A stretch of 64,000 bases of DNA, taken from contig CP060227.1 of the NCBI GenBank assembly GCA_023898525.1, forward strand, positions 823,662 to 887,661, given 5' to 3'. The position numbers and the translations under genes are program-made. The notes under the pieces are model-generated. The model was given only the letters and a program-made list of their open reading frames with translations. It had not been told where the DNA came from and ran no database searches. Source of the DNA: Candidatus Nomurabacteria bacterium. GTDB taxonomy: Bacteria > Patescibacteriota > Minisyncoccia > Phycocordibacterales > UBA918. Shown here one piece after another: positions 2,645 to 32,420 of this stretch. Every line of letters begins with the position of its first letter. The stretch's first letter is position 1.

Positions 2645-3499
2645 GTGATATACTTTAGACACATGTTAAATTTATTTTCAGACTTGCCAAGTGATGTTGT
2701 TGTGTTCACGTTTATCTTTGGTGTTATCATTGGTAGTTTTTTGAATGTTGTTATCTATCGGCTGAATACTGGTAAATCTCTAAATGGCAGCTCTCATTGT
2801 CTCTCGTGTGGTGCTAAGTTAAGGGCGTATGAACTGATACCGTTACTTTCGTATTTGATACTGAAAGGTCGGTGTAGAAATTGCGGGTCTGTTATTCCAG
2901 TGCGGTATTTTTTGGTTGAGTTCCTAACTGGTATTTTGTTTGTGGGAGTGGTCATGTTTGTATCGGGTGTGTTTGCTCAACTCTTGTTTTGGTTTGTGAT
3001 GGCTGTCTTGGTGGTGGTTGCTGTCTATGATCTGTACCATTTTATAATTCCAGACAAGCTGGTGTTATTGTTGGTGTTTGCATCGTTTGTGTATCAATTT
3101 TATCAGTTGATATTGGGTTTGTCGGCTATTGAATTTGCTTTTAATCTCGGAGCCGCTTTGCTTGGATCTTTTTTCCTTTTTTTGTTGTGGCGGCTATCTG
3201 ATGGCCGTTGGATTGGCTTTGGTGACGTCAAATTAGCGTTTCCTTTGGGTTTGCTGGTTGGTTACGCTTGGGTGTTTTCATTAATAATCTGGTCTTTTTG
3301 GGTTGGGGCACTGGTAGGATTGTCATTATTGGTTTGGCAGAGGATTAAAACCCGTGGACAACCGCACTTACGTTTCTTAGCGCGAGAGCTTACAATTAAA
3401 AGTGCGGTACCATTTGCTCCGTTTTTGATCGTCGGATTTTTAATAGTATTCTTTTTTTCACTAGATGTTATCTCACTGGTAAGTTATGTTCCAAAGTAA
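2645..3499 (+). CDS. pilD: Prepilin peptidase PilD (A24 family), bifunctional leader peptidase and N-methyltransferase
   Basis: N-terminal Cys cluster CLSCGAKL...CRNCGS. GSFLNVVIYRL motif. Multiple TM helices. Confidence 0.85.
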   Translation: MIYFRHMLNLFSDLPSDVVVFTFIFGVIIGSFLNVVIYRLNTGKSLNGSSHCLSCGAKLRAYELIPLLSYLILKGRCRNCGSVIPVRYFLVEFLTGILFVGVVMFVSGVFAQLLFWFVMAVLVVVAVYDLYHFIIPDKLVLLLVFASFVYQFYQLILGLSAIEFAFNLGAALLGSFFLFLLWRLSDGRWIGFGDVKLAFPLGLLVGYAWVFSLIIWSFWVGALVGLSLLVWQRIKTRGQPHLRFLARELTIKSAVPFAPFLIVGFLIVFFFSLDVISLVSYVPK

Positions 3500-4082
3500 G
3501 TATCGGTCATATAAACAAAACCATTTATTGAGTGGTGGTTTTGGTTTAGTTGAGATGATGGTTAGTATTGGAATATTAGTTTTAGTGATGAGTGTAATTC
3601 TGGCGAATCATCAAGCTTTTAATCATGCTGTACTCCTAAAAAGTCAGGCTTATGAAATAGCTTTTAAGGTTAGGGAAGCGCAGCTCTTTGCTGTTAGTGT
3701 GACCGGTGACTCTGGTGATTTTCGTAAAGTGTACGGCGTACACTTTAATGATAGTACCAGTAATGGTGTGTACAAAGTTTTTAGAGACAATAATGCGACC
3801 CAAAATTATTATTATGATTCTGTCAGTGAGGAATTTGGCGAGCAAGGAGTTTTAGACCCTAGGTTTGAGGTTTCGGATATTAGACTGCTTGGCAGTGCTG
3901 TTACACCAAATGATCTATCAATTATATTTACCAGACCAAATTTTGATGCCCGCTTTTTCACTGGACCACTAACAGAACCAGCTAATGTAACTGGGGCAGA
4001 GATCGATGTTCGTCTTCGTGGTTCGACTAGTCCAGTATATACAATTGAAATTACCAAAACCGGTCAGATTTCGGTAAAATAA
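3486..4082 (+). CDS. Pseudopilin / minor pilin with prepilin-type N-terminus
   Basis: GGFGLVEMMVSIGILVLVMSVILA fits the prepilin signature G-F-x-L-x-E plus a hydrophobic helix. Confidence 0.6.
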   Translation: MFQSKYRSYKQNHLLSGGFGLVEMMVSIGILVLVMSVILANHQAFNHAVLLKSQAYEIAFKVREAQLFAVSVTGDSGDFRKVYGVHFNDSTSNGVYKVFRDNNATQNYYYDSVSEEFGEQGVLDPRFEVSDIRLLGSAVTPNDLSIIFTRPNFDARFFTGPLTEPANVTGAEIDVRLRGSTSPVYTIEITKTGQISVK

Positions 4083-9729: not shown

Positions 9730-10350
9730 ATGGATTCAACTTTAAATACTACAACCACAGCTACCACTAACACCGGAGGGGTACCTCTAGAACCAGTTAC
9801 GTTTGATGTTGTATCAGCAGTAGTCGGTCTAATTACTGGCACTTCGTACACCGGAGTGACTGATTTTTTTGGTGGTTTATGGAACGCGTTTGTTATCATA
9901 TCCTACACACTTTCCATCATAATGCTTCTTATTTATGTTTACGCCGCTACTCAGTATCGGCAACTATCTAACTTGCGCTTAGAAATGATGCATAAAAGAG
10001 AGCGATTGTATGATGAGCAGTTTCGTAGCGGTCCAAGAAACAGTCGTTTGGAGGATATTGATAAGCATATAACTTCAGATAACCCAAATGACTGGAAATT
10101 GGCTATTATAGAAGCTGATATAGTCCTGGATGATGAATTAAAGAAAGTTGGGTATACAGGAACATCGCTTGGTGAAAGACTGCGTAGTATCAATACAGCC
10201 CAGTTGAACAGTCTTGACGATGCCTGGCAAGCTCATAAGGTGCGAAACCAAATAGCACACGGTGGAGCAGATTTTGTCCTGACTAAGCACTTGGCCGAAA
10301 ATACCATCAAACAGTACAAGCGAGTTTTTGGGGAGCTGGGTATACGTTAA
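9730..10350 (+). CDS. Hypothetical membrane-anchored protein with a HEPN-like Rx4H motif
   Basis: Thr-rich N-terminus, one TM helix (WNAFVIISYTLSIIMLLIYVY) and a helical C-terminal domain containing KVRNQIAHGG (R-x4-H). Confidence 0.45.
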   Translation: MDSTLNTTTTATTNTGGVPLEPVTFDVVSAVVGLITGTSYTGVTDFFGGLWNAFVIISYTLSIIMLLIYVYAATQYRQLSNLRLEMMHKRERLYDEQFRSGPRNSRLEDIDKHITSDNPNDWKLAIIEADIVLDDELKKVGYTGTSLGERLRSINTAQLNSLDDAWQAHKVRNQIAHGGADFVLTKHLAENTIKQYKRVFGELGIR

Positions 10351-10391
10351 TTCAGGTCCGGCATTTGTGCTAATTAATTTGTATAGAAATA

Positions 10392-10445
10392 GACCTTAAA
10401 GAGGAGCGGCTAGCGACGGGAAAGGTCTACCCTTGGTTGTTTTAC
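10392..10445 (+). repeat. Conserved about 54-nt element, copy 1 (a second copy lies at 29745-29797)
   Basis: gaccttaaagaggagcggctagcgacgggaaaggtctacccttggttgttttac is near-identical to the second locus. It contains a GGAGG-like motif and a 6-7 bp stem. Confidence 0.5.
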
Positions 10446-10567
10446 TTGATTTTAATTAGCATAGGTCCCAGACATGTCATTGCTTTTTAGTAAAAAATGA
10501 TGTATTGTGTTGACTTAAGGCTAATCACGTTAGTCTTTTTAATTTAGAGTACTGGAATAAATACGTA

Positions 10568-10885
10568 GCGGGGTGAGAAAGTGTCAAAACACTTTCGCAA
10601 GACCTTGCCTAGTATTTCTTGAGGCTACGAAAAGAAATACTGACAAGGTGTACAGATCCTGTAAGGATGAGGAGAGGAAACTTTTTCGTTCCAGATAAGG
10701 TAAAAATAAATACATAGCGTGACTAAGAGAGGTATCGAGCGAGAGAATTATATAGCTCTCATAACCTCCCTGGAGAACGCTTTTGTTTGAGGAGAGGTAA
10801 AAATAAATACATAGCGGGGTAGAGGAGAGGTACCTCGGGAGGCTCATAACCTCCAGACCCCGGTTCGATTCCGGGCCCCGCAACA
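10568..10885 (+). ncRNA. tRNA-like / candidate structured RNA locus: three imperfect tandem repeats (R1-R3) ending in a T-arm plus acceptor. tmRNA is an alternative reading, less well supported
   Basis: AATAAATAC(A/G)TAGCG(G/T)G occurs three times (about 10556, 10704, 10802). CTCATAACCTCC occurs twice. The 3' end is CCCCGGTTCGATTCCGGGCCCCGCA. Strong internal hairpins are present. Confidence 0.35.
10815..10882 (+). ncRNA. Degenerate tRNA-like element with a CAU (Met-type) anticodon loop
   Basis: Acceptor GCGGGG/CCCCGC. D-like stem GAGG/CCTC. Anticodon stem GGAGG/CCTCC with loop CTCATAA. T-arm CCCGG-TTCGATT-CCGGG. It is one nt short at positions 8-9 and has a 6-bp acceptor stem. Confidence 0.4.
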
Positions 10886-11040: not shown

Positions 11041-14000
11041 ATGAATTACTCTATTTATAAAAAACCGCAAACAGCTGGATGTGTAAGTAACTCATTTAAT
11101 TTAGCCATTACTAAAAGTGCGAGTTTTGTTCTCGCACTTCTGCTTATATTAGGGTCGTTAGAAAACGTTTCCTTTGCAGCTGTTCTTACTAATGGCGATG
11201 CTGGATATATTACCAACATTCAAACCCGTGATGGAAGTGATCTGTTTAGATCTGATGTACGAGAGGGAAGTGGTGGATTCTTATACGCATATGACATTCC
11301 CGTCCCACCTGGTGTTAACGGCCTCACCCCGCAAATCTCGCTACAGTACAACAGTCAGGGCAGTTCGGACCAAGATATACTTGGCTATGGTTGGAATCTT
11401 TCTATTCCATACATTGAACGGGTGAACAAACACGGCATCAATAAGCTCTTCGACCCCGCCTACGAAACCTTTTACTCCAGTCTTTCTGGTGAGCTTGTAT
11501 TCGATGGGGTAGATTACCTCACAAAAATCAACCAAGGCGACTTCATGAGATATAGCCGATTAAGTAATGGGTGGGTTGTTACTACAAAAGACGGTACCGA
11601 ATATCACTTTGGTTCTGACGTAGTAGCCCAACAGTCAGACCCGACCGATATCACTAACATTTCTCGTTGGTACCTCAGCTCGATTACTGACACTAACGGC
11701 AATATGGTCTCATATTCATACGTTAAAGACACTGGCGCAATTTATCCTAGTACCATCACTTACGGCCCATACACCATCGTGTTCACAACCGAAGCTGCTC
11801 CCACTCACTCGTCCTATAGTCTTGGCTTTAAGGTTGAACGAGATCAGCGTATCAATGCTATTGAAATAAAGGAAAATACCACAATCTTCACTCGACACGA
11901 CCTAACCTACGCTACTGGTATCAATACTCAACGTGACCTTCTGGAGACAATTACTCAAACTGACGTTATCACCAACACTAGCTTACCGGCGGTGATCTTT
12001 GATTACGGCGGCGAAGAAATTCCTCATTGGCAGAGCGACAGTTCGTTTGTATTCCCAGAGCCAATGGGACTTCAAGACAACGGTGTTCGGTTTGGTGACC
12101 TGAATGGTGATGGTCTTACGGATATGATTCGATACGAACGATACTGGAACGACATTCCCTCTGCACGGTGGACAGCTCGTCGTGTACACATCAATAAAGG
12201 CAATGGTAACTGGGATATAGATGTCCCGTGGAGCTGGGATGATATTGAGACACCGTTCTTCTTACACATTAATGATGGTGTATTCAGTAACACCGATAAG
12301 CGTTACGACATGGGCGCGCGCTTAATCGATGTTAACGGAGATGGGCTAGATGACTTCGTCGCTGCTTACAACTGCCTAGACTGGAGTAGTTCAGACTGTT
12401 CAAATGCACCAAACTATATGAAGGAAATTCTAGGTCCAATCCAAATGGATGTCTACCTGAACTCTGGCTCAGGTTTTGTAAAAGACGGCACTAACTGGTT
12501 AAATTTGCAGGCTATGTCTAGTTGGGATTATTCTCCTGCTGATATGACCAATCCAGGCCGAGCATTTGTTGATGTGAATGCTGACGGCTTACCAGACATT
12601 GTTCAATCAGTCGCTACGCTAAACTTCGGCTCGCATCCAAGTGAAAATGTAGCTTCAAATATTTGGATAAACACGGGTAATGATTGGGAACTTTCATCCC
12701 TTACTCTTCCTGCGGCACTTGCCAAATATCCGTGGCACCCTAGTTACCCAAATCTTCGTAAATTCAGTGACTATGGAACTCGATTTGCTGACGTTAACGA
12801 CGATGGGTTAATCGATGTTTTACGAGGATATCGACAGTCATTCAGTGGTAGCGTTAATACGTATACTGACGAAAAAACTGTATACATCAACACTGGTGAT
12901 GGTTGGGAAGAAGACGTGTCTTGGAACTTACCTGTTGAGTTTGTTATTCAAGATCAAACTTCTGGTTATCAGATGTTTGATTTTAACGGTGATAAACTTC
13001 CAGATATTCTTCAATCGCACTACCATAACAATAATGGTTTTAGTTATAATTTATACCTGAACAAAGGTACTACATGGCATCTTGAGAATTACTCAGTGAA
13101 CAGTACTCACTATCCAGTGTATCCTCAGCCACCTTTCCCGCTTACCAGGACAGCCGCTTATACAGGCGGTGGTGGTACGGCTATGATCGATTTTGATGGT
13201 GATAATCTACTTGACGCCTGGAATCTGTATTATCTAGACTTAGATGAAACTCAAAGCTCCGGTGGGAGTGTTTTCCTAAATACTTCAGATATTCCAGACC
13301 TAGTGACCTCAATCATTGATAAAAGCGGTTCCATTACTTCTATCAACTACGACGGCTACCTTGCTACTGTTCAATCAGACTATGTAAAAGTTGGTAACTC
13401 ACCAGTCAATCCGATAGTGGTCACTCATAAAACCATCGATAATAACCACGGTCACACGGTCACTGAAACATATGAGTACAATGATGCTCATCAGTACGTC
13501 GAGGTGAGCGATATTTTTGATCGCAAATTTGCCGGCTTCGGAAAAGTCACCAAAACCACCGATTTAGGAAAAGAAACCACTTACTACCACCAAGGAAACG
13601 GCGTAGCGACTACAACCGAAGAGGGCATAGATGACGAAGCATTAATCGGGCAGGTTTATCGCACAGAAATAACTGATCTTTCTGACAATCTCTATACACT
13701 TTCTCGTCAAAATTTTGCCACCACTTCACTTGGTAACGGCAGTACGTTTGTAAAACTGGAAAGCGGTCTCAAGCTTGATTACGATGGTGATAGCGACAAG
13801 AAAGCTTCGGCCAACAGCTACACCTACGACAACACCAATGGCTCACTCCTTACCAAAACGGAGTGGGGAGAGGTGAGTGGAAATACTGACGGTACTTTCT
13901 CAGATACCGGTACCGACAAGCAAGTGACAACTATTGAGTACGCTACCAATGCGAACGGTATAGTTCTACCATCCAAGCAAACCTTGACCGACAACTCTGA

Positions 14001-17000
14001 CACCAAAGTCCAAGAGTCTCGCTTCTACTACGATAACCAACCGCTTGGCACAGTTACTCTAGGTAACAAGACCAAAGAAGAGAATTGGCTAGGTGGCAGT
14101 AGTTATACAAACAAACAGTGGACATACAACAGCCTAGGGCTGGTAACCGCCGAAACTGATCCAGATGGTAATACCACCAACTATACTTACGATACCTATA
14201 ACTTATATCCAGCTAGTGTCACCAACGCCCTCAATCAAACCACACAGTACGAGTATGACTATTCTTCCGGGCAAGTAGCGACCACCACTGACGCTAATGG
14301 CAATATTTTTGCCACCACTTACGACGGGTTTGGTCGACCGCTTACCGTTACATCACCTGACCCACAGACCGGTACTCCGGTAGTACAGACCGAGTATGTC
14401 TATACCGATACTCCCGGCAGTGTCAGTGTGCAAAAGAAAGATTATCTAAATAGCGGATTAGTTAAAAACTCGTATACTTTCCTAGATGGCTTTGGCCGAA
14501 AGATGCAGGAAAGGCAAGAAGCGGAAGGAATGGATCAATACGTGGTGCGTGATTATGTCTACGGAAGCAATGATCTTTTGGAAAAAGAGTCACTGCCGTA
14601 CTTTGGTACCGGAGCGGCGAGAAGTGCTTCTACCACCAACGCAAACCTCTTAAGCACCTACGCTTACGATCCATTGGCTAGAGTAACAAGCGTAGCAACT
14701 GTGGTTGGTACGACCACTACCGCCTACGACCAATGGAAAGAAACCGTTACCGATACTGCCGGCAATGATAAGGTATTCCAGTATGACGCTTTTGGTCGAT
14801 TGGCAGCCGTGACCGAAAACGAGGGAACCAATTCATACACTACCAACTACACTTGGAATAATCTCGGTAATCTGACCAAGATAACTGACGCCGAAAGTAA
14901 TGTGCGAAATATAAGTTACGACGGACTTGGTCGCCGTACTAGCCTGGAAGATTTGCATGCACCAAGTGATAGTACTTTTGGAACTTGGACTTTTGCTTAT
15001 GACAACGCTGGCAACCTGACCAGCAAGACTAATCCAGAGAGTCAGACTACCAACTACACCTACGACGCTCTTAATCGCCAGTTGACCGAAGACTACACCG
15101 GACAGACTGGTACGGAAATCACTTATACTTATGATACTTGTACGGGTGGCGTGGGGCAACTTTGTACCGCTGCCAATTCTTCCGCTACCACTAACTACAC
15201 CTACACCCCAAACAACCTCTTGGCTTCAGAAGCTAAAACAATAAGTAGCAATACCTACACCACTAGCTATGAGTATGACCGCCAAGGCAACCAAACACTC
15301 ATTACTTATCCAGATAATTCAGAAGTGAAGTACACCTTTAATAAAGGTGGGCAGGTAGACAAAGTGGAACAAAAAGAGGGTGGGGGAACTTTTGCAAACA
15401 TTGTGAGTAATATTGATTATGGACCACATGGTCAGATGGAAAATATCGAATACGGCAATGGCTCTATAACTACTCGTACTTATGATGCGACCGAACTGTA
15501 CCGATTGAAAAATATCCTCACCACTGCCACCAGTACCTATGGCACCGGCGGTCCGGGAGAGGAGCTTATAAGTATTGAAGCCAAACTGGCTTCACTTACC
15601 ACTGAGCTCCCGCTTGCGACTACCAGTGAAGCCTTGGTGGTGGAGACGGTAGAGGAGCCGGTAGAGGAGATGGTCGCAACTTCTTCTGATCTTGCTATCG
15701 AACCGGCTACTTCAGATTCAACTACTGCAACTTCTACTAATATCGAAGCGACAAGTACAAACCAAGAAATAGCCGAAGCCGAACTCACCTCGACTACAAC
15801 CACAACTGATGAGGTGGTGGAGACTAGCGAAATTGCCACCACCACCACGGTCGCTGCTCCAGACGCGACTACCACTGCGTCTTCGTCGTCTGAAACCGCT
15901 ACCGGTACAGCTGACCAAGTGGTGAGTGTGGTAGAAGCTGATGTGGTATTTGATATACCTACCACCACTGCCACCAGTACTTTACCAGCAGTACCAACAG
16001 CTATTGCTTCTACCAGCAGTAACTCCACACCACCAGTTGCGGAAGCGGTGGTAGTTAATCAGGTAGTGGCTAAAAGCAAGCTAAAGCTAAAAATCAACAA
16101 CGCCCACGAAGCCCGAATGTGGCAAAAATACCACCATGAGCGAGTAGCTGGATTAGAAGCAGAGGGAGCTAATCAGGCTGTGCTTGATAAAGCCAAGTAT
16201 GCTCAGGATCAGTTGGAGTCATACTTAATTGAGGATGGTTATCTAAAAGAAAAAGGTGGAAGCGTAAAAGGACACGCTAAAGATTATGTAGAGAGCCAGG
16301 GTAAGAAACTTATAAGCAAAGTGGTGGACTTTATCTTACCGGATACCGTCCAAGCTTACCTATTTGGGTTAGAAGATTTTGAAAATTGTTCAGCTCTTCC
16401 GTGTACCTTTGACAACAATGTATCTTGGGGAGGGGTTACCCCGGCTTTAGATAACACCAGTAAGGTGGCTGGTGCGGATTCACTAAAAGAAACTGTGACT
16501 GGAGAAGGTTCCGGTGGCTTAGAGTTTGTTGATCAAAACACCGGCGAGATTTATGCTCAGTTTAAGGTATTTATTCCGAGTAATATGACTTGGGGACCTT
16601 CCGGTTATCATGGCATTCTTAGATTTGAAGATACGATCAACAACTCAGTTTTCTGGATGAATGTTGAGGATTGGGGCACAGCCAGACTAACCATGATGGG
16701 AGATGTTCTACCGTGGACTGACACCGGAATTGATTTGGTGAAAGGGGCGGTCAACACTATTGAAGTACGCTTTAAGACTGGAGCCACTAACGGCGATGTA
16801 GATATCTGGCTCAACAACACCAACGAAAGTGCACCTGACTACAACGGAAGTGGTACCCTAAACACCGGTACTGATAATGTTGACTATGTAATCGCCGGAG
16901 TTACTTATACTCCCGAAGCGATTAGTACCACCTACTTCGATGATATTGCTATCGACACTACCTTTATTGGTGAGCTAACTTCAGGTGGCCAACCGCCGGT

Positions 17001-18960
17001 GGTGCCATTTGTTGAGAATGTCCAAAACCTTTCCTATACCTACGACACTGTCGGTAATATTACCGAGATAGTAGACAACAGCGGTACCGACTCCGCCGGT
17101 ACCATCACCTACACCTACGACGACCTCTACCGCCTTATCTCAGCTTCCACTACTAATGCTAGTACTACTCCATACCAAGAAACCTATACCTACAACAGTA
17201 TCGGTAACGTCCTCAGCAAGTCTGATGTTGGTACGTATAGTTATGATGGTGGACAGAGTGGAGGAACCAGCTACTACATCTATGACGATAGCATCACTAC
17301 CGGTTGGACAGACTGGTCTTGGTGGACTACCATCAACCCAAGCGCCACCTCTCCTGTCTACTCAGGACTCTATTCATTGGGGTTAGTATACACCCAACCC
17401 TGGGCTGGTATCTCTTATCACAACAACAGTTTCGACAGCTCACCATATGATAATCTAGAGCTGGCGGTTAATGTCGGTACCGACACTACAGCCAATCTCT
17501 ACCTCTATTTCACCAACAGTGCCAGTACACCTTTTACCATCATTAACCTAAAAGACTACGTCACCGGCGGTTTCCAAGCCAACACCTGGCACAGCCTCAC
17601 CATTCCACTTTCAGACTTAGGTTACCAAAACTATCAAGGCGCCACTGAACTAAACATAGAGACCGACCAAGCCGCGACAGTGAATTTTGACAGTATTCGT
17701 TTGACTAGTACCGGCGGAGGAGGAAGCTACGCCAACCCCCACGCTGCCACCACCATCGGCGGCACCACCTACACCTACGACCAAAACGGTAACCTCCTAA
17801 CCGACGGTAATACCACTAACACCTGGAACTACCGCAACGAACTAACTGAGTCCACAAAAGCAGGAATAACGACCAGCTATGGATATGACCACAATGGTGA
17901 TCGAGTGTTCAAGACTACTTCCGAAGGAACGACTTATTATCCTTTCGCTAATTACGAAATTACTGATACTGGTACTACCACAAAGCACATCTACATGGGT
18001 GACCAATTAGTTGCCACGATTGAAGGTTCTGGTGCTGGAGCGTTGACGTATTACAACCATCTTGATCATCTCGGTGGTACCAGTGTGGTAACCGATGGTA
18101 TTGGAGCTATCACCCAAGAATTGGACTACTACCCATTCGGTGATACGAGGATAGATAATGAGTACGGAGACTTTAGACAACATATTCAGCACTCAGGTCA
18201 CCAGAAAGACGATGAAACAGGACTCATCTACCAAGGTGCACGTTACTATAATTCTGGTATCGGACGATATACATCACAAGATCCAGCAAACTTACGAAAT
18301 CCAGCGCAGTTCCTCTATGACCCACAACAGTTAAATACCTATGCGTATGCAAGGAATAATCCACTGAAGTACATTGATCCTACGGGGGAGAAGATTGAGC
18401 TTGTTTCTAGACCAGTAATTTCTTCTTATGATGCACATATGTTCTATCGAGTTACTCCAGATAATCCAGGCCAGATTTCTATTGATGGAATTCCTCAGGG
18501 CACTGAACAGTTTTCGATAGGGGCTTACAACCGAGGTGGTTTCTTAGGTATCGGCAATAAATTGACTCCAGAGTTTAGTTACGAAGGAGGTCCAGTGAAT
18601 ACTGACACCCCATACTTAAACGGGGAAAAGGCGCCTACAGCAAGTGTTGTTATCACACCACCAAACAACATGTCAGATACAGAGTTTATTAACAGTCTTG
18701 GTGCTTCAGCAAATAGTATCGACAAGACAGGTTATTATATGTTTGGTAAAACTGGTAAATTTGGTGTAGCTAATTCAAATAACTTCGTATACGAAGTTGG
18801 TAATAGGAGTGGTGTTGGTAATCAGGTCAGCTCGTTCAATTCAGGTGCATATACTCCAGGACAGAGTCAAGGAATCCCAACTGCAACATTGCTTGATAAT
18901 ATAAGGTCTAGCCTGAACAGTATTAAGGAGAGATTGTCCAAAAAAGATGATAGCGAATAA
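11041..18960 (+). CDS. Giant secreted polymorphic-toxin protein (2639 aa): signal peptide, SpvB/TcB-like N-terminal domain, FG-GAP-like repeats, RHS/YD repeats, S/T-rich linker plus LamG/CBM-like insert, Rhs core, variable C-terminal toxin domain
   Basis: Signal peptide ASFVLALLLILGS. DxNGDGxxD repeats (FGDLNGDGLTDM, IDVNGDGLDDF, VDVNADGLPDIV...). Many YD repeats (YTYDALNRQ, YEYDRQGNQ, YTYDTVGNI). Rhs core GARYYNSGIGRYTSQDP...NTYAYARNNPLKYIDPTGE, followed by about 200 unique residues. Confidence 0.85.
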   Translation: MNYSIYKKPQTAGCVSNSFNLAITKSASFVLALLLILGSLENVSFAAVLTNGDAGYITNIQTRDGSDLFRSDVREGSGGFLYAYDIPVPPGVNGLTPQISLQYNSQGSSDQDILGYGWNLSIPYIERVNKHGINKLFDPAYETFYSSLSGELVFDGVDYLTKINQGDFMRYSRLSNGWVVTTKDGTEYHFGSDVVAQQSDPTDITNISRWYLSSITDTNGNMVSYSYVKDTGAIYPSTITYGPYTIVFTTEAAPTHSSYSLGFKVERDQRINAIEIKENTTIFTRHDLTYATGINTQRDLLETITQTDVITNTSLPAVIFDYGGEEIPHWQSDSSFVFPEPMGLQDNGVRFGDLNGDGLTDMIRYERYWNDIPSARWTARRVHINKGNGNWDIDVPWSWDDIETPFFLHINDGVFSNTDKRYDMGARLIDVNGDGLDDFVAAYNCLDWSSSDCSNAPNYMKEILGPIQMDVYLNSGSGFVKDGTNWLNLQAMSSWDYSPADMTNPGRAFVDVNADGLPDIVQSVATLNFGSHPSENVASNIWINTGNDWELSSLTLPAALAKYPWHPSYPNLRKFSDYGTRFADVNDDGLIDVLRGYRQSFSGSVNTYTDEKTVYINTGDGWEEDVSWNLPVEFVIQDQTSGYQMFDFNGDKLPDILQSHYHNNNGFSYNLYLNKGTTWHLENYSVNSTHYPVYPQPPFPLTRTAAYTGGGGTAMIDFDGDNLLDAWNLYYLDLDETQSSGGSVFLNTSDIPDLVTSIIDKSGSITSINYDGYLATVQSDYVKVGNSPVNPIVVTHKTIDNNHGHTVTETYEYNDAHQYVEVSDIFDRKFAGFGKVTKTTDLGKETTYYHQGNGVATTTEEGIDDEALIGQVYRTEITDLSDNLYTLSRQNFATTSLGNGSTFVKLESGLKLDYDGDSDKKASANSYTYDNTNGSLLTKTEWGEVSGNTDGTFSDTGTDKQVTTIEYATNANGIVLPSKQTLTDNSDTKVQESRFYYDNQPLGTVTLGNKTKEENWLGGSSYTNKQWTYNSLGLVTAETDPDGNTTNYTYDTYNLYPASVTNALNQTTQYEYDYSSGQVATTTDANGNIFATTYDGFGRPLTVTSPDPQTGTPVVQTEYVYTDTPGSVSVQKKDYLNSGLVKNSYTFLDGFGRKMQERQEAEGMDQYVVRDYVYGSNDLLEKESLPYFGTGAARSASTTNANLLSTYAYDPLARVTSVATVVGTTTTAYDQWKETVTDTAGNDKVFQYDAFGRLAAVTENEGTNSYTTNYTWNNLGNLTKITDAESNVRNISYDGLGRRTSLEDLHAPSDSTFGTWTFAYDNAGNLTSKTNPESQTTNYTYDALNRQLTEDYTGQTGTEITYTYDTCTGGVGQLCTAANSSATTNYTYTPNNLLASEAKTISSNTYTTSYEYDRQGNQTLITYPDNSEVKYTFNKGGQVDKVEQKEGGGTFANIVSNIDYGPHGQMENIEYGNGSITTRTYDATELYRLKNILTTATSTYGTGGPGEELISIEAKLASLTTELPLATTSEALVVETVEEPVEEMVATSSDLAIEPATSDSTTATSTNIEATSTNQEIAEAELTSTTTTTDEVVETSEIATTTTVAAPDATTTASSSSETATGTADQVVSVVEADVVFDIPTTTATSTLPAVPTAIASTSSNSTPPVAEAVVVNQVVAKSKLKLKINNAHEARMWQKYHHERVAGLEAEGANQAVLDKAKYAQDQLESYLIEDGYLKEKGGSVKGHAKDYVESQGKKLISKVVDFILPDTVQAYLFGLEDFENCSALPCTFDNNVSWGGVTPALDNTSKVAGADSLKETVTGEGSGGLEFVDQNTGEIYAQFKVFIPSNMTWGPSGYHGILRFEDTINNSVFWMNVEDWGTARLTMMGDVLPWTDTGIDLVKGAVNTIEVRFKTGATNGDVDIWLNNTNESAPDYNGSGTLNTGTDNVDYVIAGVTYTPEAISTTYFDDIAIDTTFIGELTSGGQPPVVPFVENVQNLSYTYDTVGNITEIVDNSGTDSAGTITYTYDDLYRLISASTTNASTTPYQETYTYNSIGNVLSKSDVGTYSYDGGQSGGTSYYIYDDSITTGWTDWSWWTTINPSATSPVYSGLYSLGLVYTQPWAGISYHNNSFDSSPYDNLELAVNVGTDTTANLYLYFTNSASTPFTIINLKDYVTGGFQANTWHSLTIPLSDLGYQNYQGATELNIETDQAATVNFDSIRLTSTGGGGSYANPHAATTIGGTTYTYDQNGNLLTDGNTTNTWNYRNELTESTKAGITTSYGYDHNGDRVFKTTSEGTTYYPFANYEITDTGTTTKHIYMGDQLVATIEGSGAGALTYYNHLDHLGGTSVVTDGIGAITQELDYYPFGDTRIDNEYGDFRQHIQHSGHQKDDETGLIYQGARYYNSGIGRYTSQDPANLRNPAQFLYDPQQLNTYAYARNNPLKYIDPTGEKIELVSRPVISSYDAHMFYRVTPDNPGQISIDGIPQGTEQFSIGAYNRGGFLGIGNKLTPEFSYEGGPVNTDTPYLNGEKAPTASVVITPPNNMSDTEFINSLGASANSIDKTGYYMFGKTGKFGVANSNNFVYEVGNRSGVGNQVSSFNSGAYTPGQSQGIPTATLLDNIRSSLNSIKERLSKKDDSE

Positions 18961-29281: not shown

Positions 29282-29707
29282 ATGGCAAGTTGGGCGGTCT
29301 ATGCACTATTGGCGGCTTTCTTTGCTTCACTAGTAGCAATTTTTGGTAAGCTGGGCGTAAAGGATGTTGATAGTAACTTAGCGGTGGCAATTCGGACTGT
29401 CATTATTTTGTTTTTTGCTTGGGGGATTGTCTTGTTGCAGGGTAATGCGGGAGATATGTTCAAGATTTCCAAATACTCCATGACTTTTATTGTGCTCTCC
29501 GCTTTGGCGACTGGTGCTTCATGGATGTTCTACTATAAGGCCTTGCAACTCGGCGAGGTATCTAAGGTGGCACCGATTGATAAGTTTAGTATTGCGCTGA
29601 CTATTCTTATGGCATTTATCATACTGGGTGAGAAGCCAACTTTTGGTACGGTACTCGGTGGGCTTTTGGTAACAGCCGGGGTGTTTGTCACAATTTATGT
29701 GAAGTAG
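29282..29707 (+). CDS. EamA-like small membrane transporter (DMT superfamily, 4 TM)
   Basis: 141 aa with four hydrophobic helices and an EamA-like pattern. Confidence 0.55.
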   Translation: MASWAVYALLAAFFASLVAIFGKLGVKDVDSNLAVAIRTVIILFFAWGIVLLQGNAGDMFKISKYSMTFIVLSALATGASWMFYYKALQLGEVSKVAPIDKFSIALTILMAFIILGEKPTFGTVLGGLLVTAGVFVTIYVK

Positions 29708-29744
29708 ACATAAAATCAATCAAAACAAAAAATAACAGAGGTGC

Positions 29745-29797
29745 GACCTTAAGGAGGAGCTTGTGACGGAAAAGGTTGTTCCTTGGTTATTGTTTTA
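29745..29797 (+). repeat. Conserved about 54-nt element, copy 2 (copy 1 lies at 10392-10445)
   Basis: gaccttaaggaggagcttgtgacggaaaaggttgttccttggttattgtttta. Confidence 0.5.
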
Positions 29798-29869
29798 TAC
29801 CTAATAAGTTGGTGATGAATTAAGATGATTTCTTTACTTCAAATTTGTCTTTAAATATGGTAGATTTAT

Positions 29870-29909: not shown

Positions 29910-29931
29910 TGCCGGATCGTCTAATGGTAAG
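29910..29931 (+). other. Partial duplicate of the 5' 22 nt of tRNA-Gln
   Basis: TGCCGGATCGTCTAATGGTAAG versus the tRNA 5' end TGCCAGATCGTCTAATGGTAGG. Confidence 0.5.
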
Positions 29932-29997
29932 CAGAGCTTTCTTTCATCATTCGCTCGGACACAGAAGAGGTATTTTGTACAAATTTATATTCACCGC

Positions 29998-30068
29998 TGC
30001 CAGATCGTCTAATGGTAGGACTCCAGGTTTTGGTCCTGGCTATCTAGGTTCGAGTCCTAGTCTGGCAG
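29998..30068 (+). tRNA. tRNA-Gln (anticodon TTG)
   Basis: TGCCAGA-TC-GTCT-AATGGTA-GGAC-T-CCAGG-TTTTGGT-CCTGG-CTAT-CTAGG-TTCGAGT-CCTAG-TCTGGCA-G. U1-A72 and G73 are Gln-type. Confidence 0.8.
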
Positions 30069-30125
30069 CGGTGGATGGAAATACAAAATACCTCTTTTGT
30101 GTCTCTCGCTCATTCGAAAGTAGGT

Positions 30126-30304
30126 AAAACAATCTGGGAGATTGTTTTACGGGTTTTGCACCACAAGGGTATTTCTATTTTAATAGTCGTTTCACTCATT
30201 TAAAATAAGTCCACCACAAGGGTATTTCTATTTTCATGGTCGCTATCGCTTTCTGAAAATTAGGTCGTCCATGGTATTTAGGCTGAGACAGTCTGGGAGA
30301 CTGT
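30126..30304 (+). repeat. Structured repeat region downstream of tRNA-Gln: two 31-nt direct repeats plus twin CTGGGAG-loop hairpins
   Basis: DR CACCACAAGGGTATTTCTATTTT(A/C)AT(A/G)GTCG at 30159-30189 and 30212-30242. Hairpins AAAACAATCTGGGAGATTGTTTT (30126-30148) and ACAGTCTGGGAGACTGT (30288-30304), with an A-T to G-C change that keeps the stem paired. Confidence 0.5.
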
Positions 30305-30418
30305 TGAAGAAGGTTGTCTAGTATTTTATGACAAAAAAAGGAAATAAAATACTGACAAACCAGTCTGTACTGATGCTGTAAGGATCGGGTCTTATTCAGA
30401 CAGTCAATTAGTGATAGT

Positions 30419-31663: not shown

Positions 31664-31877
31664 CCATGAGATGTACCTTTTGTAGCAATACAATAGAAGT
31701 TGAGTTGTATACAGGTGATGTTGCTCATAAAAAATGTCAAACTAAAAATATGGTCACAGATAAATAGGGATAACTGGGGTCAGTATCCATTTCCAACCAA
31801 CATCCTCCCAATTAACACAACCACCCATGCACCACCACATGAAACTACAACCAGACATGTTTAGATTCCATCTTTAC

Positions 31878-32420
31878 CCCGCATGCTTGTCATCGGGGGA
31901 AACATTGTCATACTAAACAGTAATGAAAGGTAAACCACAACATATCAAAAAACCACACAACAAAACTCTGTTCATCTATCATCTGGTATGCCCAGTAAAA
32001 TACAGAAGAGATGTATTTACACCACCAATATCAAAAACATTTAAAAACTTATGTTTGGAATTTGGTCCAGCTTACGAGATATACTTTCTTGAAATAGGAA
32101 TAGACGAAGATCATGTACACTTTTTAATACAAACAATTCCAAACATACGTTTCTCTGATACGGTAAAGAAAATAAAAAGCATCACCTCCAATCATCTCTT
32201 TAAAATCCACCCTGAACTAAAAATAAAACTCTGGGGAGGAAAGTTCTGGACTGAAGGTTATTATGCAAATACAGTGGGTAATGCCAGTATGGATATTATT
32301 ACCAATTACGTTAAAAACCAAGGTTATCCCGAATACCAACAGCTACACTCCGCACCAGTTCAGACTTCACTGTTTACTACCTAGTCCAACGCCGATACCC
32401 CGTATGCTTGTCATCGGGGT
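31878..32420 (+). mobile_element. IS200/IS605-family insertion sequence (543 bp) with subterminal hairpins, inserted 3' of TTAC
   Basis: Left hairpin CCCCGCATGCTTGTCATCGGGG (31877-31898). Right hairpin CCCCGTATGCTTGTCATCGGGG (32398-32419). It carries a Y1 tnpA gene. The flanking sequence is ...CTTTAC|. Confidence 0.7.
31923..32384 (+). CDS. IS200/IS605 family transposase TnpA (Y1 HUH)
   Basis: HUH motif DHVHFLIQ. Catalytic Tyr region GYYANTVG. 153 aa. Confidence 0.85.
   Translation: MKGKPQHIKKPHNKTLFIYHLVCPVKYRRDVFTPPISKTFKNLCLEFGPAYEIYFLEIGIDEDHVHFLIQTIPNIRFSDTVKKIKSITSNHLFKIHPELKIKLWGGKFWTEGYYANTVGNASMDIITNYVKNQGYPEYQQLHSAPVQTSLFTT

Follow-up and report, generated by a model that had tools for sequence, protein, structure and literature searches.

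Introduction

Palindromic repeats that insert in frame into unrelated metabolic genes have been described as RPEs in Rickettsia (Ogata et al., 2000, 2002, as summarized in PMC10969869); they measure ~100–150 bp. REPs are shorter (20–40 nt), lie outside genes and have GTAG or CGTC at the stem base (PMC3733652 for the tagged classes). Two copies of a further palindromic element lie in the window, by which is meant the whole 64 kb stretch of Candidatus Nomurabacteria DNA that was analysed. This element is very probably a short (~55–100 nt), non-coding, non-autonomous, MITE-like palindromic repeat dispersed through the Patescibacteria (CPR), and of the known systems it is most like the RPE. In-gene palindromic repeats were described as a peculiarity of Rickettsia, and if Patescibacteria have a second family, unrelated to the first, then even very small, streamlined genomes can tolerate selfish DNA inside essential genes (IleRS, UvrB, LigA, GatB and others). 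Neither a description of the element nor the terms MITE or RPE in connection with CPR taxa were found in the literature searched, the coverage of which was incomplete.

Results

Two copies of the element in the window

Two look-alike stretches of 54 nt, at 10392–10445 and 29745–29797, had been picked out in an earlier note on this DNA. Both are present, and their alignment, ~54 nt long, contains one 3-nt indel. In the window there are exactly two matches to the 3' block GACGGRAAAGGTNNNYCCTTGGTT, compared with none in 100 dinucleotide-preserving shuffles, and the 5' block GACCTTAARGAGGAGC has exact matches in the window only at the two copies, with a third site at three mismatches. The similarity of the two copies is real and not a product of chance. 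Their identity is 62 %, and neither is the closest relative of the other; with only two copies in 64 kb that are not mutually closest, the pair does not demonstrate recent activity within this genome.

A longer imperfect palindrome surrounds each 54-nt core, which forms its asymmetric centre (Table 1). The 5' boundary drawn in the earlier note truncates the element, as the left arm of copy 2 reaches back to 29722. The stem reported there was recovered (GACCTT/AAGGTC in copy 1, GACCTT/AAGGTT in copy 2); the GGAGG-like motif is likewise present, and is one strand of a conserved internal loop. In copy 1 the 13-bp helix typical of the family is degraded in its outer part, with AGAAA opposite CCCTT and three non-canonical pairs in the alignment to the covariance model R1. 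Folded singly, the 54-mers gave unexceptional energies (z 0 to −1.5), so the hairpin structure is recognizable only from the family alignment; AAGGT...ACCTT hairpins were not enriched in the window.

The R1 scores of the two copies (Table 1) are partly circular, both sequences being within the 67-copy training alignment, and the E-values are rough owing to a shortened calibration. On the minus strand copy 1 scored 8.6 bits. With filters off, R1 found no third true copy in the whole 64 kb, the next matches being plain hairpins of at most 18 bits. Each copy begins ~40 nt 3' of a stop codon.

Table 1. Positions of the element, its parts and features discussed with it (window positions unless a locus is named)
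Feature	Location	Strand	Sequence or parts	Basis or remarks
Copy 1, full imperfect palindrome	10366..10463	+		Sequence, RNA and DNA folds, model alignment
Copy 1, outer 12-bp inverted repeat	10366–10377 / 10452–10463		TGTGCTAATTAA / TTAATTAGCATA	
Copy 1, inner helix	10390–10397 / 10422–10429		TAGACCTT / AAGGTCTA	
Copy 1, core matched by R1	10382..10437	+		47.6 bits, E 8e-11
Copy 1, core parts			5' loop AAAGAGGA; apical hairpin GC-GGCTA-GC; 3' loop GACGGGA	
Copy 1, extra block, ~128 nt	10352..10479	.		Alignment A6; missing in four syntenic relatives
Copy 2, full hairpin	29722..29796	+		Sequence, fold
Copy 2, outer arm	29722–29727 / 29791–29796		AAAACA... / ...TGTTTT	Paired
Copy 2, 13-bp helix	29738–29750 / 29772–29784		GAGGTGCGACCTT / AAGGTTGTTCCTT	Complete
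Copy 2, core matched by R1	29735..29787	+		53.7 bits, E 1.6e-12
Copy 2, core parts			5' loop AAGGAGGA; apical G-CTTG-T; 3' loop GACGGAA	
Copy 2, extra block, ~105–115 nt	29708..29823	.		Approximate; EamA stop (TAG 29705–29707) to GAATTA
Family, part 1			Variable outer stem P0	
Family, part 2			13-bp helix, AAGGUCnnnCCUU paired with AAGGnnnGACCUU	
Family, part 3			Purine-rich internal loop, 5' strand GAGGAGGA, 3' strand GACGGGA	
Family, part 4			2-bp GC/GC helix and tri- or tetraloop cap	Sometimes lengthened by a further GA-rich module
ORF upstream of copy 1	9730–10350			
EamA-family ORF upstream of copy 2	29282–29707			
tRNA-Met	10813–10884			ARAGORN
tRNA-Gln	29998–30069			ARAGORN
Repeated unit A	10563–10690			
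Repeated unit B	30268–30398			
tRNA-Met-like fragment	10717–10781; L087 ~3163–3222			Also in L092
Copy of first ~20 nt of tRNA-Gln	29910–29929			
Inverted repeat enclosing tRNA-Gln	29957–29979 / 30083–30104			22–23 nt
31-nt direct repeat	30159–30189 and 30212–30242		CACCACAAGGGTATTTCTATTTT...	94 % identical, 53 nt spacing
2639-aa ORF	11041–18960			YD/RHS-like repeats by eye
IS200/IS605-type insertion sequence	31877–32419			
Y1 ORF	31923–32384	+		153 aa, Pfam Y1_Tnp E 9e-35
Direct hairpin pair flanking the Y1 gene	31877–31898 and 32398–32419		CCCCGYATGCTTGTCATCGGGG	
Tgt orientation comparison	L012 862–1007			Compared with L020, L030, L052
Duplicated segment with both orientations	L062 2835–2890 vs 3650–3705			
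Sister palindromes	L055 5391–5432, 6070–6111; L081 1468–1509, 9427–9468, 6046–6123; L058 9774–9815			
tRNA-Met terminator-like hairpin in relatives	L088 3288–3322; L092 and L093 3342–3376		AAAAGGTCGTTTAGCTTTGCTAAACGACCTTTTGGTTTTT	

Distribution in genomes and metagenomes

One genome per GTDB species was scanned with the 3' block as query. This gave three real copies, all in contigs of Patescibacteria MAGs (L001 and L002, both belonging to a single 'Patescibacteria group bacterium' MAG, and L006, from a Saccharibacteria MAG), and three likely chance matches in unrelated genomes (L003–L005). The upstream sequence CCTTRARGAGGAG was also conserved in the MAG copies, though absent from the scan query. 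A metagenome scan anchored on CCTTRARGAGGAG...ACGGRAAAGG, with the 3' arm left free, found the pattern in at least 80 contigs, these counts being lower bounds; on inspection, eight loci among the 80 look like chance matches in G+C-rich coding sequence and were set aside (several are near-identical contigs, leaving six distinct sequences). The assignment to Patescibacteria comes from the MAG contigs, the metagenome contigs having been counted by sequence pattern. No copy was found in the viral contigs scanned.

With weaker variant matches included, R1 detected up to roughly five to six family members per 12-kb contig. The carrier contigs have very different G+C contents, and this suggests that the element ranges well beyond a single genus.

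Architecture and covariation of the family

Alignments A2 and A3, of 71 and 67 distinct copies, respectively, revealed the family as one long hairpin made up of four parts (Table 1), to which many copies add a second, outer loop of the same kind (GCGGGAAAAGG ... CCUUGAGGAGC). When pairs were counted on A3, 91 % of the cells held standard pairs, compared with 43–54 % when the 3' partners were slid by one to three columns. Two-sided changes occurred in 125 cells vs 41 ± 4.5 in shuffles, and the observed covariation was reached by none of 500 shuffles. The 13-bp helix was thus strongly covarying across the 67 copies and the internal loops were constant, an invariance that is overstated because the metagenome sample was chosen by a pattern requiring the loop sequences. 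Four pairs, CCUU/AAGG, are invariant in A3 but are fixed by the search pattern; in copies that the model found outside the pattern, CCTT/AAGG changes to CCTC/GAGG, both sides together.

Sister palindromes were also seen, with the same arms (GAAGAGGTCGGTCCTC...GAGGTCCGACCTCGAG), an outer GGCGG/GAGCC loop and a different centre (AAGATGTTCC or longer inserts). They are very dense in contigs of one sample, Ga0076013, and are probably also the source of the GPTSR, EVRPRG and RTPGS motifs inside proteins of those contigs. Since some members keep the arms but swap the centre for AAGATGTTCC, the family is modular. In relatives, a terminator-like hairpin 3' of tRNA-Met has arms equal to those of one element subfamily (AAAAGGTCGTT...CGACCTTGGTTTT), a hint that ordinary hairpins of the AAGGTC type may have received the conserved centre as a nested module. 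The CCTTGGTT subfamily carries U-rich tails, but with a large loop and a displaced tail.

Empty sites in relatives

LigA–GatC–GatA–ORF205 synteny is common to four relatives (L087, L088, L090 and L092), in none of which R1 found a copy. In all four, TTGCG...AAAAAATGATGTACTATT, which resembles a promoter and precedes tRNA-Met, begins immediately after the stop codon of the ORF206 homologue. At the position of copy 2, a relative with an EamA protein 94 % identical (L094) has only 9 nt between the stop codon and GAATTA, and R1 finds no copy there; a second (L095, EamA 99 % identical) has the block with an identical copy. Both window copies are insertions, and their orthologous sites are empty in close relatives. 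Comparison of filled and empty sites for both copies revealed no clear target-site duplication; the flanks have strongly diverged.

Proximity to tRNA genes, as described in the earlier note, holds within the window, where both copies lie a few hundred nt upstream of one (Table 1), but not elsewhere: among 60 other element loci, ARAGORN detected tRNA genes in only seven and none within ~700 nt of the element. The tRNA association is a local coincidence. A cis element of tRNA operons, acting as a processing signal or a promoter-associated leader, is suggested by the distances of 370 and 200 nt to tRNA-Met and tRNA-Gln, but it is extremely improbable, given that the relatives keep the same tRNA genes and promoter-like sequences without the element and that the 60 other loci lack a tRNA near it. 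Each window copy lies 5' of the promoter-like sequence that is conserved ahead of the tRNA gene, so the element is not part of the tRNA leader, and the empty sites themselves refute a tRNA-leader reading.

A small regulatory RNA or leader had been proposed, with the proviso that it would be refuted if the sequence recurred many times as part of a longer element with inverted repeats, or if related genomes lacked it. Both were observed: at least 80 further copies form a longer palindrome, and in close relatives the orthologous sites at both window positions are empty. This reading is therefore not supported, and of the three put forward earlier only the MITE-like one survives. A leader or riboswitch is ruled out by the lack of a constant downstream gene, by the occurrence of both orientations and by the frequent location inside coding sequence. 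In some copies an ATG follows 8–20 nt past the outer GAGGAG, as in a 5' leader, but the neighbours are unrelated and many copies are inside ORFs. Rfam 15 gave no match to the element, whether the whole window was searched at the gathering threshold, the two copy regions with E up to 10, or 19 other loci carrying better-preserved, canonical copies with E up to 1. A consensus terminator scan called no intrinsic terminator at either window copy; both have U-rich 3' flanks.

Copies inside genes

At ~30 loci the element was located within a long ORF open on both sides. The hosts, identified from translations and Pfam, include IleRS, a UvrD-like helicase, LigA (NAD-dependent DNA ligase), RecJ, Tgt (tRNA-guanine transglycosylase), GatB, Dus (dihydrouridine synthase), a type I methylase and a glycosyltransferase family. 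The Pfam match spans or flanks the insert in UvrD_C, GatB_N, Dus and TGT (the latter in two stretches). In UvrB, three different insertion sites were occupied in three contigs, each site being empty in the other two; UvrC had the element at two sites, and TruB contained two copies.

Two forward frames are used in genes, giving ...KRSxLEEERSDGKGxTLR... or ...LRRSEATGKV.... The remaining forward frame, f0, holds a TGA (CCT TGA) and spans no gene; in L039 the TGA of the element terminates the upstream ORF. The consensus core is free of stops in two of three forward frames and in all three reverse frames, and reverse-orientation in-frame copies were found in Tgt, PheT, HolB and ComF. A profile of the doubled LEEERSDGKG peptide gave 2652 word-sharing candidates, only three of them at E ≤10, and was thus uninformative on the number of carrier proteins. 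An intron or bypass element is disfavoured, as the frame is open in every examined in-gene copy, the TGA frame never occurs in genes and no split genes were seen.

The use of several frames also weighs against a short ORF or leader peptide served by a separate Shine–Dalgarno sequence, which could be read in copy 2 as AAGGAGG followed by a GTG start, MTEKVVPWLLFYT and a stop (13 aa). Differences between the copies look synonymous (GTC/GTT, TTG/TTA, TAC/TAT and a 3-nt indel), with apparent frame conservation as T(G/E)KV(Y/V)PWL(L)FY. However, copy 1 has no start codon (GCG is aligned to GTG), the family nucleotides are read in two forward frames as well as reverse frames inside hosts, and the 3' part changes freely, following the 5' arm as its complement. 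The multi-frame reading and this complementarity explain the frame-like conservation by the palindrome and not by a peptide, which makes the small ORF very unlikely.

In the glycosyltransferase family the element occupies the same position (after SLGKE...) in divergent orthologues (L035, L047 and L007 vs L042, L010 and L053), and the arms are wholly different yet complementary, GGAGGTCCGT/TCGGTCCTC vs CCGACCCGT/TGCGGGTCGG. The site is either an old insertion retained as a hairpin or a hot spot.

Orientation and the question of selection

One site in Tgt was occupied in four related contigs, with three copies forward and one inverted between the outer arms GAAAGC/GCTTTC. The forward Tgt copies differ by compensatory helix changes (TCTCT/TGAGA vs TCTGG/CCAGA, and GGTC/GACC vs GGAC/GTCC). 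A duplicated segment of L062 also showed both orientations (Table 1). In these orientation-switched copies (Tgt and L062) the outer arms are perfectly palindromic and everything between them is inverted.

In genes, 20 copies were on the same strand as the host, nine on the opposite strand and seven were ambiguous; 3' of upstream genes, 22 copies were co-oriented vs nine. Intergenic copies mostly lie 10–60 nt past a stop codon. No neighbour gene was constant, and the orientations were mixed.

Several of these observations would fit a functional structured module, K-turn-like and bound by a conserved CPR protein, that acts on RNA and was kept by selection after it had spread, with 3'-end formation, mRNA stabilization or protein recruitment as proposed roles. 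They comprise the constancy of the loops while the stems covary, the paired switch to CCTC/GAGG in the copies that escape the search pattern, the sense-strand bias in genes and after co-oriented upstream genes, the usual position shortly past a stop codon and the U-rich tails of one subfamily; the compensatory changes in orthologous Tgt copies may mean selection for the folded form. Against this, reverse in-gene copies keep the loop on the non-transcribed strand, which better fits DNA recognition or a young age. Moreover, ~30 % of copies have A in place of the 2n guanine of a K-turn, the non-canonical stem is irregular, no Rfam match was obtained, the terminator scan was negative at both window copies and close relatives lack the element at the same sites. 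Such an RNA-level function is accordingly judged improbable, at roughly a tenth of the weight that certainty would carry.

A somewhat broader claim, that a folded module across much of Patescibacteria is under selection and that its purine loops (GAGGA/GGGAA-type) and compensated stems are recognized by a conserved CPR protein, is a little less improbable but still unlikely. The protein could then be a hairpin-specific enzyme (HUH/Y1-like or other) in a REPIN–RAYT-like arrangement, or an RNA-binding protein acting on many mRNAs, and core enzymes would gain a shared peptide tag through the in-frame copies.

Other repeats and rearrangements near the window copies

A second repeated non-coding unit of ~130 nt is present twice, with one unit near each palindromic element. 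Units A and B have ~74 % mean column identity in a pairwise alignment and share the blocks CTAGTATTT...AAATACTGACAA and CTGTAAGGAT; their hairpins differ in sequence, with pairing kept. Unit A folds unusually well (z −3.6), opens with the tRNA 5' sequence GCGGGGTGAG and is missing at the orthologous place in relatives L087 and L090. The repeated unit had no Rfam match.

Just upstream of the true tRNA-Met lies a tRNA-Met-like fragment. It comprises AAATACATAGCG, which resembles a promoter, a 5' part and CTCATAACC, which resembles an anticodon loop, and has neither a T-arm nor an acceptor 3' strand. It is conserved in relatives, and so may be a functional small RNA and not debris. Between tRNA-Met and the NTP-transferase genes is the 2639-aa ORF, which looks like an island inserted beside the tRNA, since in L088, L090 and L092 the NTP-transferase genes closely follow the tRNA-Met region.

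Ahead of the tRNA-Gln gene lies a duplicate of its first ~20 nt, and an inverted repeat that lengthens the acceptor stem encloses the gene. Relative L094 has a plain tRNA-Gln and a simple terminator, so the tRNA locus in the window has undergone a further rearrangement or insertion; Rfam detected no group I intron in the region (29910–30110). A 31-nt direct repeat lies between tRNA-Gln and unit B.

Search for a mobilizing enzyme

The window contains an IS200/IS605-type insertion sequence whose Y1 transposase gene is flanked by a direct hairpin pair (Table 1). These CCCCGYATGCTTGTCATCGGGG hairpins were found nowhere else in the window or in the fetched loci and are unrelated to the palindromic element, and no Y1 homologue was present in the 99 fetched loci (~470 kb). 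A link between the element and this transposase was rejected on the grounds of the different hairpins and the lack of a Y1 homologue near other copies. The window Y1_Tnp, with its different end hairpins, was the only transposase seen, and the search, which was made for Y1 homologues, gave neither a parent element nor a cognate transposase.

Discussion

Dispersed copies, a hairpin structure, insertion polymorphism, independent sites in the same gene, both orientations and open frames together point to a non-autonomous mobile repeat, and it was the location of copies inside genes that decided this interpretation. Such a repeat would spread as DNA, probably via a hairpin intermediate recognized in trans by an enzyme, and could switch orientation by inversion through its outer arms. 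Survival in genes would be possible because the consensus core can be read without a stop in two forward frames and in every reverse frame, and to judge from the intact frames the in-gene copies are presumably translated as a hydrophilic stretch of ~20–26 residues. The window copies would have landed in the short spacer between a stop codon (of ORF206 and of the EamA transporter gene, respectively) and the promoter-like region of a tRNA gene. They are most likely neutral passengers; at most, they possibly give the upstream mRNA a 3' hairpin.

As a mobile repeat, the element is a plausible source of lineage-specific protein insertions. It can also mislead annotation, as spurious small ORFs, apparent Shine–Dalgarno sites and 'conserved non-coding elements', and would be useful as a marker for strain-level comparison and for tracing its mobilizing enzyme.

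Comparison with known systems

Among the systems considered, the intrinsic terminator differs in that its G+C-rich, short-loop hairpin with a direct U run was not called at either window copy. PARCELs are likewise translated palindromic DNA with a distribution suggesting horizontal spread, but they are tandem arrays of 25-residue repeats in proteins of unknown function, often membrane-targeted, whereas the element described here enters conserved enzymes as one insert and is also found in intergenic DNA.

A likeness to the K-turn was seen by eye: a C-stem (CCUU/AAGG), a 3-nt bulge (GAG/AAA/AAG) and G.A and A.G pairs from the invariant GA are compatible with it in most copies. It departs from the K-turn in having A at 2n in about one-third of copies, extra nucleotides opposite the bulge and an irregular non-canonical stem. 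Read from the sequence, the resemblance may serve as a lead and not as a test.

With REPs and the REPIN–RAYT system the element shares an imperfect palindrome that could be recognized as a single-stranded DNA hairpin, and the genome encodes a Y1 transposase. Unlike REPs and REPINs, it is longer and often intragenic, CGTC is found only on the complementary strand, inside the internal loop, and no Y1 gene flanked by the element was present in the 64 kb of the genome or the ~470 kb of loci.

The element is short, non-coding and dispersed (at least 80 metagenome loci and three MAG contigs), with several copies per contig, and as a whole forms an imperfect palindrome, supported by covariation, in the manner of the terminal inverted repeats of MITEs. 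Like the bacterial MITEs (Correia/NEMIS, ERIC, RUP, BOX and SPRITE; PMC10969869), it is non-autonomous and multi-copy, often lies just past stop codons and occasionally is fused in frame to a gene (PMC10969869). It differs from them in being one hairpin instead of two terminal repeats around a unique core; a clear target-site duplication was not seen in the diverged flanks of the window copies, nor a parent insertion sequence with matching ends in the window and the fetched loci.

The RPE is the nearest of these systems. The present element is much shorter (core 54 nt, hairpin ~55–100 nt). Its internal loops are purine-rich and conserved, its centres are modular and nested, either orientation can occupy a given site, and its distribution, in Patescibacteria and not in Rickettsia, is apparently very broad. 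By analogy it is best regarded as an RPE counterpart and not a member of that family, a separation that is drawn by host. The RPE is, as is the element, a dispersed palindrome found both between genes and in frame within unrelated housekeeping genes, to which it adds a short peptide (PMC10969869). A transposase is known for neither, and in both cases the hosts have small, reduced genomes and a host-dependent lifestyle.
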